Positions 1,211 through 25,243 of a stretch of DNA of 33,269 bases are shown piece by piece. The translations under genes were made by a program, and so were the position numbers. Position 1 is the stretch's first letter, and every line of letters starts with the position of its first letter. The notes beneath the pieces are model-generated. The model worked only from the letters and a program-made list of their open reading frames with translations, was not told the origin of the DNA and made no database searches. This stretch comes from Alphaproteobacteria bacterium (lineage in GTDB: Bacteria; Pseudomonadota; Alphaproteobacteria; Rs-D84). The stretch spans positions 1 to 33,269 of the forward strand of contig JAFSST010000045.1 in the NCBI GenBank assembly GCA_017450905.1, in the 5' to 3' direction.

Positions 1211-2785
1211 ATGAGACAGGGTTTATCCGAAGATTTAATCGCACGCGTTTTGGGTGTCGCACCGAAATATACGATTTCCGAATTAGAGGAAAAATTTCCG
1301 CCACGTGATTTGCCAGAGGGTGCGATGGTAACACGTTTCGCCCCCAGTCCGACCGGTATGATGCACCTTGGTGGTCTATACCAGGCATTGATTGATTCTA
1401 AATTGGCGTATGACAGCCATGGTGTATTTATGTTACGTATTGAAGACACGGACACCAAGCGTGAGGTCGTAGACGCGGTTACATTGATTATCAGTTCGTT
1501 AAAAAAATTCGGAATAAAATATAACGATATGCCCGAATATGGACCTTATTATCAATCAGAACGCAGGGATATTTATCATTCGGTTGCGGCGGAATTGTTG
1601 CGAACAGGGCGTGCGTATCCGTGCTTTTTAACGGCGGACGATATGGAACGCATACGCAGCGAACAATCAGCGGCTGGATTTGCAACCGGTATATACGGCG
1701 AATTTGCACGCGACCGCGATATAAGTGCGGAAGAAATTATTAAACATCTTGATAATGGTGAAATGCCAACAATTCGTTTGTATTCAACGGGCGACCCAGC
1801 AAAGCGAATTTTCTGCAAGGATGCGGTGCGTGGTTCGATTGGGTTCCCGGAAAATAACGAAGATATCGTTTTAATTAAATCAAATGATGGATTACCGACA
1901 TATCATTTTGCACACTTGTGCGATGATCATTTTATGCGGACAACCCATGTTATCCGTGGTGAAGAATGGTTGCCGTCATTACCGTTACACACGCAATTGT
2001 TTCGTATGATGGAATGGACACCACCATTGTATATTCATACTTCGACCATTGATAAAATAGACAGTGAAACCGGCAAGCAACGCAAATTGTCAAAACGTAA
2101 AGACCCGGAAAGTAATGTTGCGTTCTTTTTACAAGAAGGCTGGCCGACAATGGCTGTTTTAGAATACCTTGGTAATATCGCGGCATCTGGATACGAAGAG
2201 GCAAAGTTAAAGGGGATGGTTAAAACAATTTGGGAATACCCGATAAAACCAAAAAAGATTCCAATGTCGGGTGCGTTGTTTGATATGAAAAAATTGGAAT
2301 GGTGGGCAAAAGAGTATATAGGTGCGATGGCCGTTCCTGATTTGGTGAAATCGGTCACCGATTGGGCAAATGAATATGGCGATGAAAAACAAAAAATGCA
2401 GGTTGCGGATACAGATTATCTGACCGCGGTTTTGGCAATTGAACGCGATAAGCCGCGGCGTGTTCGTAAAGATTTTATCACATGGTCCCAGACATTGGAA
2501 ATCGTGGAATTTTTCTGGGATGAATTGTTTGTTGCAAATACCGAATACGAATATAACCGCGATGTGTTAAAGGCATTTTTGGAAACGTTTGATGTTGCCG
2601 ATGACAAAGACACTTGGTGGAATAAAATTGTTGAAATAGCTGGGAAATTCGGCATAAAGAACGGTGATGTGGCAATGAATTTACGCGTTGCGTTATCGGG
2701 CCGAACAAACACGCCGGATTTGTATTCCATAATGCAGGTAATGGGTGGGACCAGGGTAACAAAAAGAATCAAGGATTTATTATGA
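1211..2785 (+). CDS. gltX: Glutamate--tRNA ligase
   Basis: RFAPSPTG..HLGG (HIGH-like), LRIEDTD, PTYHFA..DDH, HVIRGEEW, KLSKR. ATG at 1211 follows AAGGA. Confidence 0.95.
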   Translation: MRQGLSEDLIARVLGVAPKYTISELEEKFPPRDLPEGAMVTRFAPSPTGMMHLGGLYQALIDSKLAYDSHGVFMLRIEDTDTKREVVDAVTLIISSLKKFGIKYNDMPEYGPYYQSERRDIYHSVAAELLRTGRAYPCFLTADDMERIRSEQSAAGFATGIYGEFARDRDISAEEIIKHLDNGEMPTIRLYSTGDPAKRIFCKDAVRGSIGFPENNEDIVLIKSNDGLPTYHFAHLCDDHFMRTTHVIRGEEWLPSLPLHTQLFRMMEWTPPLYIHTSTIDKIDSETGKQRKLSKRKDPESNVAFFLQEGWPTMAVLEYLGNIAASGYEEAKLKGMVKTIWEYPIKPKKIPMSGALFDMKKLEWWAKEYIGAMAVPDLVKSVTDWANEYGDEKQKMQVADTDYLTAVLAIERDKPRRVRKDFITWSQTLEIVEFFWDELFVANTEYEYNRDVLKAFLETFDVADDKDTWWNKIVEIAGKFGIKNGDVAMNLRVALSGRTNTPDLYSIMQVMGGTRVTKRIKDLL

Positions 2786-3531
2786 CTAAAACAAATGTCG
2801 TTAGAAAACGTTTAAAAAAAGTCAAAGAAGATAAACGTGCATCGCGTATGTTACGTGTTTTACGTGCCACGGGTTTATTCCGTTGGGAACGCCCCAGCAC
2901 CCACGCCGAAGAAGCGATGAATATATTAACGCATGGTATTGGTATCGGATTAGCTTTGGCGGGTTTGACGTTGTTGGTTGTTTTTGCGGCGATGTATGGG
3001 AACGCTTGGTCTGTTGTTTCGTGTGCTATTTTTGGTGTAACGATGTTCACACTTTATTTTGGTTCCACAATGTGCCATGCAACAATCGGTCAAAAAAGTG
3101 AATGTTTTTTCGAAGTATGGGACAGTGTCGCCATCTATGCGTTGATTGCCGGCACATACACACCCTTTTTGTTGGTAAATTTGCGTGGACCTCTGGGGTG
3201 GACAGTGTTTGGAATTTTGTGGGCGATTGTTATATTCGGTGCGGTCGTAAAAATTCGTAATCCGCATCAGCAACCAAAATGGGTCGTGGCATTGTATTTA
3301 ATAATGGGGTGGGCGTTGTTGTTTATATTGCCGGCAATGTTGCGAAACATTCCATCGCGTGGATTATGGTTTATTTTGGCGGGCGGTTTGTCATATTCAA
3401 TTGGTGTGGTTTTTTATCTGTGGCGGCGATTAAAGTTTTCGCATACTATTTGGCACCTGTTTGTGATTGGTGGAACGGTTTGTTTCTTCTTTGCTGTTCT
3501 GTATGGGGCAATTTTGGATTATGCCGCATAA
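2782..3531 (+). CDS. Hemolysin III / PAQR family membrane protein (TrhA-like)
   Basis: EE..N.LTHG, STMCH, IYALIAGTYTPF, YLIMGW, GGLSYSIG, HTIWHLFV; about 7 TM segments; ATGA overlap with gltX. Confidence 0.92.
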   Translation: MTKTNVVRKRLKKVKEDKRASRMLRVLRATGLFRWERPSTHAEEAMNILTHGIGIGLALAGLTLLVVFAAMYGNAWSVVSCAIFGVTMFTLYFGSTMCHATIGQKSECFFEVWDSVAIYALIAGTYTPFLLVNLRGPLGWTVFGILWAIVIFGAVVKIRNPHQQPKWVVALYLIMGWALLFILPAMLRNIPSRGLWFILAGGLSYSIGVVFYLWRRLKFSHTIWHLFVIGGTVCFFFAVLYGAILDYAA

Positions 3532-3571
3532 ATTTTTTCTTGTTAAAAAAATTAATTGATATAAAATCAAT

Positions 3572-3744
3572 ACTGATGCAATGTATTATTGCATTGGGCT
3601 TCAGAACCCATCAATAGGCGTCAGTGAAGACGTAAAAACTCCAACTTATCCAGGTTGGAGGGTGTGGAATATATTGAATAACACACGCAATTCCTGTTGA
3701 TTGTTCTGAAACTCCAACCACCTGTTTTTGGTGGTTTAGTTTTT
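3572..3744 (+). ncRNA. Candidate structured non-coding or cis-regulatory RNA, family unknown
   Basis: Hairpin ATGCAAT/ATTGCAT; long closing stem TTCAGAAC..ATCAATAGG (3600-3618) / CCTGTTGAT.GTTCTGAA (3693-3710) enclosing three hairpins; followed by a terminator-like hairpin. Strand inferred from G-U pairs and terminator polarity. Confidence 0.6.
3716..3744 (+). terminator. Intrinsic terminator-like hairpin
   Basis: AACCACC (3716-3722) / GGTGGTT (3730-3736) followed by TAGTTTTT. Confidence 0.55.
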
Positions 3745-3764
3745 GATATCAAAAAGGGGTTGAT

Positions 3765-4688
3765 ATGAGACGGATTTTTGCCAATTTGGTTGCGATTTTT
3801 ATTCCATCGCGTGAAATCAGACGGCGTGTTCGACACAAGATTTTATCTTGGAAGTTGTCTAATCTGAACAAGAAAAAGAAATATCGTCAGTTGAAATCAG
3901 AATGGTTTGCACGTAGTGGTATATTGTTGCCTGCCAGATTCAAAGAATATGATTTGATTATTCCGATGGGTGCAACTTGTCATGTTTCTTGGTTGTTAAA
4001 GGCGTTCAAATTGCGTTCTTTTTCAATGCCGTTTGAGTGGACTGGCGGGGCAGAGCCTGTTAATTGGTATGTTGATCCGTTTGTGCAACGTAATACGCGT
4101 TTTCGTGAAAAAATAGACGCGATTTGTAATGATTTCAAAGATTTTTATAATCCAGATGATTTTCGACAGATTACGGATTGGAATCCTGGGAAAAAGCACC
4201 ACATGGTGGTAAATGTTAAAACAAAAATACGATTTATGCATGCGTTCCCTGCAAAACAAAGTTTTGAATCTTATATGCCAGATTTTATAGATAAAACGAA
4301 AAGACGTTCCGAACGATTAATTGATGCCATAAAGATGTCCGATAAAATACTGTTTTGTTGGATACACAAAACATGGGATCAAATCGCTTTGATGGATGCG
4401 ATTGTTGATGATAGAGACATAAAATATGCAATAAAAGCATTGAAAAAGAAATATCCCAATAAAGAATTTGATTTTGTTTTTTTTGAACAAGATGGCACAA
4501 AAAAGAGATTCGAATTTGAAAAAAAACCCGTGTCAAATTGTGCGTTTCGGATAAAATCAAACCATTTTTTATTTGATTCTGAATATGAAACTTTGTGGCC
4601 TTTTGATGACAAATTTCATTCCCATATTCATGTTGTTTCTGAAATGTTGGACAACATAAAACTGTCAAAAAAAATCAAAAATGGGTAA
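3765..4688 (+). CDS. DUF1796 family putative papain-like cysteine peptidase
   Basis: YDLIIPMGATC...L....LRSFSMPFEW matches the DUF1796 (SLG..C...L....LR..S.PFDW) pattern, with RFMHAF downstream. Visibly AT-richer than its neighbours. Confidence 0.75.
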   Translation: MRRIFANLVAIFIPSREIRRRVRHKILSWKLSNLNKKKKYRQLKSEWFARSGILLPARFKEYDLIIPMGATCHVSWLLKAFKLRSFSMPFEWTGGAEPVNWYVDPFVQRNTRFREKIDAICNDFKDFYNPDDFRQITDWNPGKKHHMVVNVKTKIRFMHAFPAKQSFESYMPDFIDKTKRRSERLIDAIKMSDKILFCWIHKTWDQIALMDAIVDDRDIKYAIKALKKKYPNKEFDFVFFEQDGTKKRFEFEKKPVSNCAFRIKSNHFLFDSEYETLWPFDDKFHSHIHVVSEMLDNIKLSKKIKNG

Positions 4689-18764: not shown

Positions 18765-18819
18765 CCAAAATTAAAACCGACACAGGTGTCGGTTTGAATT
18801 TGTGGTGGGCGCATGGGGA
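18765..18819 (-). repeat. 55-bp direct repeat, copy 2 (overlaps the tRNA-Lys 3' end; includes the terminator AAACCGACA/TGTCGGTTT)
   Basis: Identical to 18591-18645; period 174 bp. Confidence 0.95.
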
Positions 18820-18878
18820 CTCGAACCCCAGACCCACTGATTAAGAGTCAGTTGCTCTACCAACTGAGCTATGCACCC
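18803..18878 (-). tRNA. tRNA-Lys (anticodon CTT)
   Basis: GGGTGCATAGCTCAGTTGGTAGAGCAACTGACTCTTAATCAGTGGGTCTGGGGTTCGAGTCCCCATGCGCCCACCA; 76-nt cloverleaf with encoded CCA. Confidence 0.97.
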
Positions 18879-25167: not shown

Positions 25168-25243
25168 GGCCAGATAGCTCAGTTGGTAGAGCAAGGGACT
25201 GAAAATCCCTGTGTCAGTGGTTCGATTCCACTTCTGGCCACCA
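25168..25243 (+). tRNA. tRNA-Phe (anticodon GAA)
   Basis: GGCCAGATAGCTCAGTTGGTAGAGCAAGGGACTGAAAATCCCTGTGTCAGTGGTTCGATTCCACTTCTGGCCACCA; 76 nt. Confidence 0.97.

Follow-up and report, generated by a model that had tools for sequence, protein, structure and literature searches.

The sRNA-Xcc1 RNAs have been represented in Rfam (RF02221) for over a decade and share a compact fold, in which an outer helix rich in GG..GGAGG and CCUCC..CC encloses two hairpins. In RF02221 the first of these carries the motif AAUA...GAAUAA flanking an inner hairpin, and a junction of 6-7 nucleotides follows the second. According to the accessible parts of the reports, sRNA-Xcc1 is an 88-nucleotide RNA of Xanthomonas campestris that was seen by Northern blot (PMC2996969) and occurs in integron cassettes, in prophages and on genomic islands, and in Xylella seven copies are expressed, five of them in tandem (PMC12189769). 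In the accessible portions of the literature searched, no mechanism is given for sRNA-Xcc1, and no description of the leaders treated here was found in work on Enterousia or on sRNA-Xcc1. Related in topology is the C4 RNA of phages P1 and P7 (RF01695; targets a1 and b1, RF03163), in which an outer helix likewise surrounds a hairpin and a large-loop hairpin, followed by a junction, the 3' strand of the outer helix and CACC. P1 C4 reportedly represses by pairing with a2/b2 at the icd ribosome-binding site and is released by RNase P. The c4, icd and ant genes form one operon and, as far as the accessible text of that report goes, full repression of ant requires C4 (PMC8198154).

How does the present locus compare with these systems? 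The window analysed here comprises the 33,269 nucleotides of contig JAFSST010000045.1 (assembly GCA_017450905.1), which belongs to the order Rs-D84, a group of uncultured alphaproteobacteria of the gut whose genomes measure about 0.9 Mb. A gap of 233 nucleotides separates the stop of one open reading frame (3531) from the ATG of the next (3765), for which the initial annotation had proposed an unidentified multi-stem RNA, a riboswitch or small RNA candidate with alternative terminator and antiterminator pairings. All helices it named are found at the coordinates it gave, and folding of 3532-3764 recovers the four-way junction with a minimum free energy of -71.7 kcal/mol, as compared to -47.1 ± 4.5 kcal/mol for 200 shuffled sequences (z = -5.48), none of which folded as well. 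The minus strand folds comparably (z = -6.0), so that the strand cannot be told from folding energy alone; it is comparative data that assign a strand and a function to the leader. The locus is covered by contigs of four DNA runs with few differences at most, and in one of these runs there is a break inside the element.

Judged by its sequence, the stretch from 3540 to 3764 is a self-contained leader unit consisting of a predicted promoter, a structured RNA of about 170 nucleotides, a putative intrinsic terminator, a Shine-Dalgarno (SD) sequence and a start codon, all on the plus strand. A consensus scan places a sigma-70-like promoter at 3540-3567 (TTGTTA, 16-nucleotide spacer, TAAAAT; 9 of 12 matches) with a predicted start at about 3574. 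The pattern TTGnnn-N16-18-TAnnnT occurs at the promoter position in 101 of 141 family copies but in only 18-27 of 141 shuffled ones, and the -10 element of the family ends some 30 nucleotides upstream of the hairpin Pa. Between promoter and Pa, pairing and the minimum free energy fold give a 5' hairpin, P0 (ATGCAAT/ATTGCAT, 3576-3582 with 3588-3594), of which the structure is kept and the sequence is free between copies: across 142 copies the 34 nucleotides 5' of Pa fold with -8.2 kcal/mol versus -3.6 kcal/mol after shuffling, and -5 kcal/mol or better is reached in 89% versus 17%. Since the sequence of P0 is free, the short open reading frame starting at its ATG is not conserved, and a leader peptide was rejected. 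At the other end, scan and fold predict a terminator at 3716-3744 with the stem AACCACC/GGTGGTT (3716-3736) around a 7-nucleotide loop, followed by TAGTTTTT. Across the family this stem is paired in 92.8% of cells with covariation at 7/7 pairs, and at least 5 T within 9 nucleotides 3' of it are found in 97 of 115 copies. An SD-like GGGG (3756-3759) precedes the ATG (3765-3767) of an open reading frame called at 3765-4688 and encoding 307 amino acids; its earlier label DUF1796 is not supported, as the Pfam match stays below the cut-off (18.7 versus 23 bits).

Comparison with homologous copies confirms the leader as a conserved structured RNA on the plus strand and a member of a very large family of the alphaproteobacterial order Rs-D84. 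Its own genome contains eight copies by nhmmer and seven by covariance model; in the order as a whole (Candidatus Enterousia and kin) there are roughly 1,250 matches, with at least one in 136 of 151 genomes; 7, 17, 21, 51 and 57 copies are present in five near-complete genomes from its genus, and the family extends to seven other alphaproteobacterial families. Within the RNA, a first set of helices, fold I, is built around a closing helix read in the sequence (3600-3606/3704-3710 plus 3610-3618/3693-3701). Its outer part, P1a, joins a1 (TTCAGAA, 3600-3606), which is also the loop of the GGG/CCC hairpin Pa (3596-3609; 94.2% of cells paired, with GC, AU and GU changes), to a' (TTCTGAA, 3704-3710); P1a is paired in 92.9% of cells and 7/7 pairs have changed on both sides. 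The inner part, P1b, joins b1 (ATCAATAGG, 3610-3618) to b' (3693-3701). Enclosed are P2 (CGTC/GACG, 3619-3632; 96.3% paired, 4/4 pairs covarying), which is dispensable, being absent from the two copies L014 and L029; P3 (CTCCAAC/GTTGGAG, 3639-3660; 96.7% paired, 6/7 pairs changed on both sides), formed by an anti-SD-like decoy strand A (3639-3645) with the SD-like strand B (GGTTGGAGG, 3653-3661); and P4 (GTGTG/CACAC, 3662-3686; stem 95% paired, 5/5 pairs covarying). The P4 loop GAATATATTGAATAA (3667-3681) contains two GAAUA repeats and is invariant or nearly so; promoter-like readings of this loop were discarded because the spacing is wrong. Over P1a, P2, P3, P4 and the terminator together, the 115 homologous copies collected have 94.5% of cells paired, and 29 of 30 pairs have changed on both sides, which none of 500 shuffles equals, albeit in an alignment fitted to the model's own structure and thus biased in favor of that structure. 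P1b was tested independently of alignment columns by comparing duplexes of cognate and non-cognate strands: cognate strands pair with -6.6 kcal/mol and non-cognate ones with -0.8 kcal/mol, with 92 distinct 5' strands in 109 copies.

A second set of helices, fold II, uses some of the same strands. Here b' lies inside the loop of a hairpin P5 (CAAT/ATTG, 3688-3703; 97.3% paired, the second pair being U-A in 56 copies and A-U in 51), and from pseudoknot geometry we infer that P5 and P1b are mutually exclusive. Moreover, B is not confined to P3 but can be the 5' strand of an outer helix with A' (ACTCCAACC, 3711-3719), the alternative pairing of GGTTGGAG (3653-3660) with CTCCAACC (3712-3719) read in the sequence. 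A' overlaps the 5' arm of the terminator by 4 nucleotides, a' is the single-stranded junction of fold II, and B:A' would be the antiterminator. B:A' is paired in 96.4% of cells with 6/8 pairs changed on both sides, and a ninth pair outside P3 (3661 with 3711) covaries independently (GC in 64 copies, UA in 30). The fold II helices Pa, P5 and B:A' together reach 96.4% pairing; 12 of 16 pairs have changed on both sides, a result matched by none of 500 shuffles. A, B and A' switch jointly between lineages (GGTTGGAGG/CCTCCAACC, GGTAGGAAGG/CTTCCTATC, GGCTGGAGGG/CCTCCAGCC, GACTGGAAGG/CTTCCAGTC and GGCAGGAAGG/CTTCCTGCC), and across genera and families compensatory change keeps both the terminator and the pairing that competes with it, bearing out the alternative pairings originally proposed. 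These data support selection on both folds. B:A' covariation is not proof of antitermination, as B:A' is the plain closing helix in homologous small RNAs.

Which are these homologues? The 3' two-thirds of the leader is by comparative evidence a diverged member of the sRNA-Xcc1/C4 kind of antisense RNAs, and to this extent the RNA is no longer unidentified. The outer helix around two hairpins corresponds to B:A', P4 and P5 with their covariation, ACC follows A' in 58 of 115 copies, and the P4 loop GAATATATTGAATAA aligns to the canonical AAUA...GAAUAA motif. sRNA-Xcc1 has the same fold as 3653-3722, sharing the first hairpin with its motif, the second hairpin, the 6-7-nucleotide junction, ACC and the terminator; a' occupies the position of the junction 5' of the outer-helix 3' strand in both RF02221 and C4. 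In addition, sRNA-Xcc1, as far as the accessible sources describe it, usually precedes a gene in the same orientation (symE or an ORF6N gene), as the leaders do. The window copy itself has no RF02221 match at E ≤ 10 (3450-3850) and does not reach the gathering score (53 bits), and there are no matches at E ≤ 0.01 in its own genome. Among the 151 genomes of the order 73 have RF02221 matches at E ≤ 0.01, three above the gathering score, and some lie inside leader copies. Sister copies score 30-58 bits; in one of them (L184, 37.4 bits) the alignment spans model positions 1-87, and in a sister copy B aligns to positions 1-9, the start of the sRNA-Xcc1-like domain. Twenty further loci scanned at E ≤ 2 gave no match. 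Reciprocally, a model derived from nothing but these leaders in fold II (R2) detects 14 of the 42 phage loci searched at E < 0.01, the strongest match reaching 50.5 bits (E = 8.5e-10), and all 20 of the 42 viral loci that were scanned with Rfam carry RF02221 (59-82 bits). The kinship of the window copy with RF02221 is transitive, via its sister copies. Several features set the leaders apart. The inner hairpin of P4 is absent; the terminator overlaps the outer helix by the 4 nucleotides mentioned above, whereas in the one canonical phage copy examined (L237) it starts right after the helix; the leaders are chromosomal with 7-57 copies per genome; and, unlike in canonical sRNA-Xcc1, the a1/b1 module and the decoy A are part of the same short transcript without a terminator-like hairpin in between.

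The a1/b1 module links the leaders to C4. In both systems the hairpin loop b' and the junction a' match, by complementarity, a1 and b1 located upstream in the same transcript, which for the leaders is documented by P1a and P1b, and C4, like the leaders, is co-transcribed with the gene under its control; Rfam finds no C4 match in the window. In canonical phage loci of sRNA-Xcc1 the P5 loop together with the junction shows specific complementarity to a site upstream and to the ribosome-binding site of the next gene (for the latter, a2/b2, -23.1 kcal/mol cognate versus -19.1 kcal/mol non-cognate, p = 1e-9), which suggests that these copies pair with that ribosome-binding site in the manner of C4, the immunity RNA of P1. 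In the Rs-D84 copies no such a2/b2 sites are apparent at the downstream ribosome-binding site, the difference being marginal at most for b' (-4.68 versus -4.22 kcal/mol) and not significant for a'. Unlike in P1 C4, the output of the leaders would be the predicted intrinsic terminator or masking of the SD by A'. A GC-rich hairpin with a U tract and an alternative pairing on its 5' arm, as found here, fit an intrinsic-terminator attenuator as modeled, and the three-strand logic A:B, B:A' and A':terminator, with a terminator overlapping the antiterminator, is the same as in trp-type attenuators and riboswitch platforms; SD-masking variants likewise exist among classical attenuators. Unlike such classical attenuators the leaders have no conserved leader peptide, and they sense by means of an antisense RNA bound to its own target.

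We consider it somewhat more probable than not (probability roughly 0.55) that the leader joins a C4-type RNA to the a1/b1 target of that RNA and works as a default-off attenuator. Briefly, the 3' domain (B, P4, P5, a', A') would be the diverged antisense RNA, and the 5' domain would hold its targets, a1 in the Pa loop and b1 adjoining, together with the decoy A. In fold I, a1:a', b1:b' and A:B would close the four-way junction and leave A' free, so that the terminator forms, the gene is off and an RNA of about 170 nucleotides is released; the CCUCC-like part of A' could additionally mask the SD. In fold II, the C4/sRNA-Xcc1 fold, B:A' would take 4 of the 7 positions of the terminator 5' arm, P5 would replace P1b and transcription would read through into the gene. 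The nascent-RNA antiterminator fold is 13.1 kcal/mol worse than the minimum free energy in the window copy (median 9.5 kcal/mol) and within 2 kcal/mol of it in only 5 of 106 copies; fold I with the terminator is predicted to be the ground state, hence off by default. The gene would be switched on by a factor occupying a1/b1 or A, or else stabilizing or cleaving fold II; RNase P, as for C4, or a protein bound to the invariant GAAUA..GAAUAA motif might play this part. The use of the promoter, termination and read-through are predictions throughout. In three terminator-less copies A' (CCUCC or CUUCC) lies 10-12 nucleotides upstream of the SD, and the output stage, to judge from these, is interchangeable between terminator and SD masking. 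The position of the family fits a switch controlling the downstream gene, as had been suggested: in 136 of 163 copies a co-oriented start codon follows 25-170 nucleotides 3' of A' (median distance 57 nucleotides; 40-69 in 109 copies), a spacing that leaves no room for a separate promoter of the downstream gene, and only 3 of 163 copies face a convergent open reading frame instead. Whether the downstream gene is constant, as expected of a cis element, or variable, as for a small RNA, had been put forward as a check. Position and orientation are kept, and the genes themselves fall into 62 unrelated clusters among 136 proteins; these are for the most part secreted proteins that match no Pfam family, small HTH proteins of the XRE type, a methylase and a glycosyltransferase.

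As an alternative, the unit could be a stand-alone small RNA gene that yields the terminated RNA of about 170 nucleotides, or a C4-like piece of some 70-90 nucleotides cut from it, and acts by base pairing in trans through a'/b' or the CCUCC-like stretch, its place before genes reflecting tight packing or dual use. Tandem arrays of three to five complete units, each with its own predicted promoter and terminator and with no open reading frame in between, are more readily expected of such RNA genes than of attenuators, the accessible parts of the sources describe the relatives sRNA-Xcc1 and C4 as accumulating in the form of small RNAs, and fold I with the terminator, the predicted ground state, would release just such a product. 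However, the fixed short distance to a co-oriented start would be unexpected, terminator-less copies continue directly into the SD, and every candidate seed is paired in fold I. Moreover, neither Hfq nor ProQ nor CsrA was found in five genomes, four of them near-complete. A trans-target search in the own genome, using a loose pattern with a' offset by one base, returned only chance-looking matches. We regard this reading as rather doubtful, albeit as the one that survives best beside the attenuator.

Much less can be said for a metabolite or ion riboswitch, in which a ligand bound in the four-way junction would stabilize fold I and cause termination. The architecture of a four-way junction combined with a terminator/antiterminator expression platform, the interchangeability of terminator and SD masking, known from riboswitch classes, and the many copies per genome are what such a switch might show. 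Yet neither a conserved pocket nor a common downstream function is evident: the 62 downstream clusters have no common theme, P2 can be absent, the strands of the junction are short and show little conservation, nearly every copy has P1 helices of its own, fold I is predicted to win without a ligand, and the fold is homologous to antisense RNAs, so that the riboswitch originally considered has become very improbable. Gathering-score and E-value scans of the window with Rfam gave two tRNAs and chance-level matches only, with no riboswitch; T-boxes were likewise discarded for lack of an Rfam match in the window. RfaH/LoaP-type antitermination was also rejected, as 4/4 near-complete genomes have only one NusG and no NusG paralogue was found in five genomes, four of them near-complete; each genome has one cold-shock-domain gene. 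That the copies are selfish repeats scattered through the genome (MITE- or REP-like), or mobile cassettes of promoter and terminator without a regulatory role of their own, might be imagined from the dozens of copies per genome, contig breaks within copies, the good folding of both DNA strands and the carriage of relatives by phages, integrons and islands, but is hardly credible given that orientation and spacing to the next gene are fixed (the 136 of 163 copies above), that no terminal repeats or transposase adjoin the copies examined, and that helices are kept by compensatory change while sequences diverge fully, which indicates selection on the RNA fold of one strand.

What would the attenuator reading mean for these bacteria? 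Gut alphaproteobacteria with genomes of only about 0.9 Mb have apparently turned an antisense RNA into a self-contained switch by fusing it to its own target and using a terminator as output, on a scale of up to 57 leaders per genome placed before secreted and small HTH proteins. It could further be imagined, although we hold this to be a long shot, that each leader with its private address helices a1:a' and b1:b' belongs to an RNA-only, address-coded control network descended from a phage immunity system. In such a network processed C4-like RNAs or a1/b1 pieces would open or close only leaders sharing their address, in cis or in trans, and the overall level would be set either by RNase P or by a common factor bound to the invariant GAAUA motif. 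In genomes without Hfq, ProQ and CsrA as many as about 6% of the genes, chiefly those for surface proteins, could then be governed in this way, and on/off variation of the cell surface might result. If confirmed, the attenuator would offer a compact, programmable two-helix "address" design and would represent a rare case in which a reduced genome has domesticated an RNA regulator of mobile elements as its principal means of regulation.

In the window, the gap at 3532-3764 lies on the plus strand between a membrane ORF of 249 aa (2782-3531) and a downstream ORF of 307 aa (3765-4688), and houses a unit that reads, from 5' to 3', promoter, 5' hairpin, hairpin Pa with loop a1, strand b1, helix P2, strands A and B, P4, P5 with loop b', strands a' and A', terminator, SD and ATG. 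Inspection of the sequence located every pairing that the initial annotation had claimed for the gap, each at the coordinates given there, and 5' hairpin, long closing helix, three inner hairpins and terminator all recur in the MFE fold. The MFE of -71.7 kcal/mol compares with -47.1 +/- 4.5 kcal/mol for 200 dinucleotide shuffles, none of which folds as well (z -5.48); as the minus strand folds about equally well (z -6.0), the strand is not decided by folding energy alone. Consensus scans place a promoter-like site at 3540-3567 and a predicted terminator at 3716-3736, both on the plus strand. An Rfam scan of 3450-3850 gave no meaningful match. The kind of element is already known, namely sRNA-Xcc1 and C4. 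In the whole window only two tRNA genes exceed the Rfam gathering score (18806-18878, minus strand; 25168-25240, plus strand). Within the species the locus is nearly invariant in DNA contigs from four runs. The P4 loop, GAAUAUAUUGAAUAA (3667-3681), is readable as two opposed GAAUA strands (putative pairs G.A, A-U, A.A, U-A and A.G) with a UAUU cap, at which a hairpin is inserted in other lineages and in canonical, that is phage or viral, sRNA-Xcc1 loci (RF02221). Read in this way, the loop is a candidate site for a protein or tertiary contact.

The window's own 0.8-Mb, 74%-complete assembly contains copies of the element, alignable over ~230 nt, at five places according to blastn and at eight according to nhmmer, and a same-orientation ORF follows in all six of these eight copies with downstream flank on the contig. 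A motif scan of one genome per species (185,579 species) yielded at least 121 stretches, and among the 80 matches listed all but one are titled Candidatus Enterousia, Alphaproteobacteria, Rickettsiales, proteobacterium or 'bacterium', the exception being a record labelled Muribaculaceae. Enterousia (order Rs-D84) are described in the available excerpts of one article as uncultured inhabitants of the gut whose genomes measure 0.75-1.0 Mb (PMC12306168). R1, a covariance model of the element core, matches in 136 of 151 Rs-D84 genomes (family counts: f1 118/121, f3 14/19, f2 1/4, f5 1/2, f6 1/3, f4 0/1) and also, in a sample of one genome per family, in seven other alphaproteobacterial families. 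Full scoring gives counts of 7, 17, 21, 51 and 57 copies for five near-complete genomes of the genus; genomes from other families of the order have 3-25. Contigs of one public run break inside the element, and since the element limits assembly through contig ends and breaks, copy counts taken from draft genomes should be read as minimum values. At contig ends of G000, a genome of the genus, lie two copies (C21:29-294 and C28:55148-55314) whose upstream flanks are identical.

Two alternative folds of the element are both maintained by selection. In fold I, a1 pairs with a' (P1a), b1 with b' (P1b) and A with B (P3), leaving the terminator free to form; in fold II, which resembles C4 and sRNA-Xcc1, B pairs with A' as outer helix or antiterminator and P5 is formed. 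For fold I (P1a, P2, P3, P4 and terminator), 94.5% of cells are paired and 29 of 30 pairs have changed on both sides in an alignment of 115 copies that was fitted to the R1 model itself, a level reached by 0 of 500 shuffles, with slid controls at 32-57%. In a column-free test of P1b, cognate strands give -6.6 kcal/mol and non-cognate strands -0.8, and its 5' strands comprise 92 distinct sequences in 109 copies. Pa, a GGG/CCC stem enclosing the 5' strand of P1a, is paired in 94.2%, and P5, a CWAT/ATWG stem enclosing the 3' strand of P1b, in 97.3%, its second pair being U-A 56 times and A-U 51 times. The alternative pairing B:A', proposed from the window to overlap the left arm of the terminator, is likewise kept by covariation (96.4% paired, both-side changes in six of eight pairs); a ninth pair, outside P3, is GC in 64 copies and UA in 30, and A, B and A' vary jointly between lineages (triple covariation), with five further variants. 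On geometric grounds, Pa and P1a would be compatible as an H-type pseudoknot with a 1-nt first loop across a 7-bp stem, and P5 and P1b would be mutually exclusive because no 3'-side linker remains.

The 5' arm of the terminator is common to the terminator and the outer helix of the C4-like fold: A' shares 4 nt with it, and formation of B:A' leaves three terminator pairs. The penalty for imposing B:A' is 17.9 kcal/mol for the window's full leader and 13.1 for its nascent RNA; across the family the cost in nascent RNA has a median of 9.5 kcal/mol and is within 2 kcal/mol in 5 of 106 copies. In the energy model fold I emerges as the ground, or default, state. SD-masking variants of the leader also exist: in three terminator-less copies (L194, L207, L205), the SD, with GGAGG or GGGAG, follows A' (CCUCC or CUUCC) at a distance of 10-12 nt, and these copies would be the SD-masking form of the same switch.

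The element is a promoter-proximal leader. A TTGnnn-N16-18-TAnnnT promoter is found in 101 of 141 copies, against 18-27 of 141 in shuffles, and ends ~30 nt before Pa; the 34 nt in between fold as a hairpin of free sequence, and a U tract follows the terminator stem in 97 of 115 copies. Among 163 copies (153 loci), 136 are followed, at 25-170 nt from A', by the start of a co-oriented ORF (median 57 nt; 40-69 nt in 109 copies), the other 27 being mostly truncated by the locus end or upstream members of tandem arrays; a convergent ORF takes its place in 3. The proteins encoded downstream form 62 clusters. HTH-like proteins of 60-90 aa make up two families (16 and 14 members); also represented are numerous products that carry signal peptides and many cysteines, a DNA methylase, a glycosyltransferase of family 2 and a weak VirB2-like match, and the majority of the proteins fall in no Pfam family. 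The name DUF1796 given to the window's ORF at 3765-4688 is a weak label, as the match (residues 65-93) scores 18.7 bits, below the Pfam cut-off of 23. In another species of the genus, a copy 89% identical to that of the window (L006; blastn, 205 nt) is followed by a gene whose product belongs to the same BLAST cluster as the 307-aa protein.

Alternatively, the element could be a stand-alone sRNA gene, a reading kept alive by tandem arrays of three to five complete units (L166:1265-2371, minus strand; also L159, L163, L157 and L168). Each array unit (period ~240 nt) has its own TTGATA-N17-TATAAT promoter, and a gene, encoding a small HTH protein, follows only the last unit. In the best array, that of L166, spacers are 90% identical and P1a, P1b and P2 only 49-60%, while the helix strands printed still pair, so that the 'address' helices seem to diverge more quickly than unpaired DNA does. 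The units of an array are mosaics, with inner or outer helices in common.

For the element as a leader, transcription would by default end at 3740-3744 and release an RNA of ~170 nt, and read-through into the gene would need a factor that releases B from its pairing with A, or a'/b' from theirs with a1/b1, or that locks the RNA in fold II. Hfq, ProQ and CsrA were not found in G000, G041, G042, G075 and G067, five genomes of the genus of which four are near-complete, and the same five have a single NusG and no second one; one cold-shock-domain gene is present in the genomes of the genus examined. The only such gene found in G000 (C66:18823-19014, minus strand) lies directly upstream of another element copy (C66:18406-18559).

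The relation to sRNA-Xcc1 emerges from searches in both directions. L184, a copy from a different family of the order, matches RF02221, whose gathering score is 53 bits, along the full length of the model with 37.4 bits (E 3.4e-5, 351-nt search), and the Rfam consensus structure equals fold II, with outer helix B:A', hairpin 1 with AAUA...GAAUAA, P5 as hairpin 2, then the junction and ACC. At E<=0.01 RF02221 matches in 73 of 151 genomes of the order (3 exceed the gathering score), in part within R1 matches; there were 0 matches in the window's own genome, none in 14 control genomes and none at E<=2 in 20 further Rs-D84 loci. The best matches are a second subfamily of the same genus (L219-L228, e.g. 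L224:1484-1668, minus strand) with B = GGTCGGGG and A' = CCCCGACC, in which A and a Pa/P1a module lie upstream, the 3' domain scores 48.8-57.8 bits on RF02221 and the genes directly downstream start with signal peptides. Conversely, R2, a model of Rs-D84 3' domains alone in fold II, has matches with E<0.01 in 14 of the 42 viral loci searched (top 50.5 bits), RF02221 scoring 59-82 bits in the 20 of these 42 that were scanned with Rfam. Detection being reciprocal but patchy, the kinship is genuine but distant by the measure of these sequence models, and transitive in the case of the window copy.

C4 (Rfam consensus) and sRNA-Xcc1 have the same topology, and one viral locus carries c4-a1b1, isrK, C4 and sRNA-Xcc1 in series. 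Across 87 distinct canonical viral loci, P5 loop and junction together show specific complementarity to two sites, one upstream (-30.5 vs -22.9 kcal/mol, p 4e-21) and one just before the start of the next gene (-23.1 vs -19.1 kcal/mol, p 1e-9), the latter ending in or running into the SD in the examples printed. In the canonical loci on viral contigs L229-L308 the upstream site sits in a small hairpin, and many of them also have an A:B hairpin. This two-site arrangement is that known for phage P1, where a'/b' of C4 pair with a2/b2 and an RNase P step is involved. In P1, c4, icd and ant belong to a single operon, and C4 antisense RNA is needed for full ant repression, as stated in the available excerpts of PMC8198154. 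The Rs-D84 leaders have their upstream sites as the 5' strands of P1a and P1b; a downstream a2/b2 site is essentially absent (-4.68 vs -4.22 kcal/mol). New in this variant is that it is self-targeted, terminator-coupled, chromosomal and present in dozens of leaders per reduced genome; it was not found in the available portions of the full-text literature on Enterousia and sRNA-Xcc1. The two sets of sites in canonical loci suggest that the sRNA-Xcc1 'sRNA gene' of Rfam works like the C4 immunity RNA of P1.
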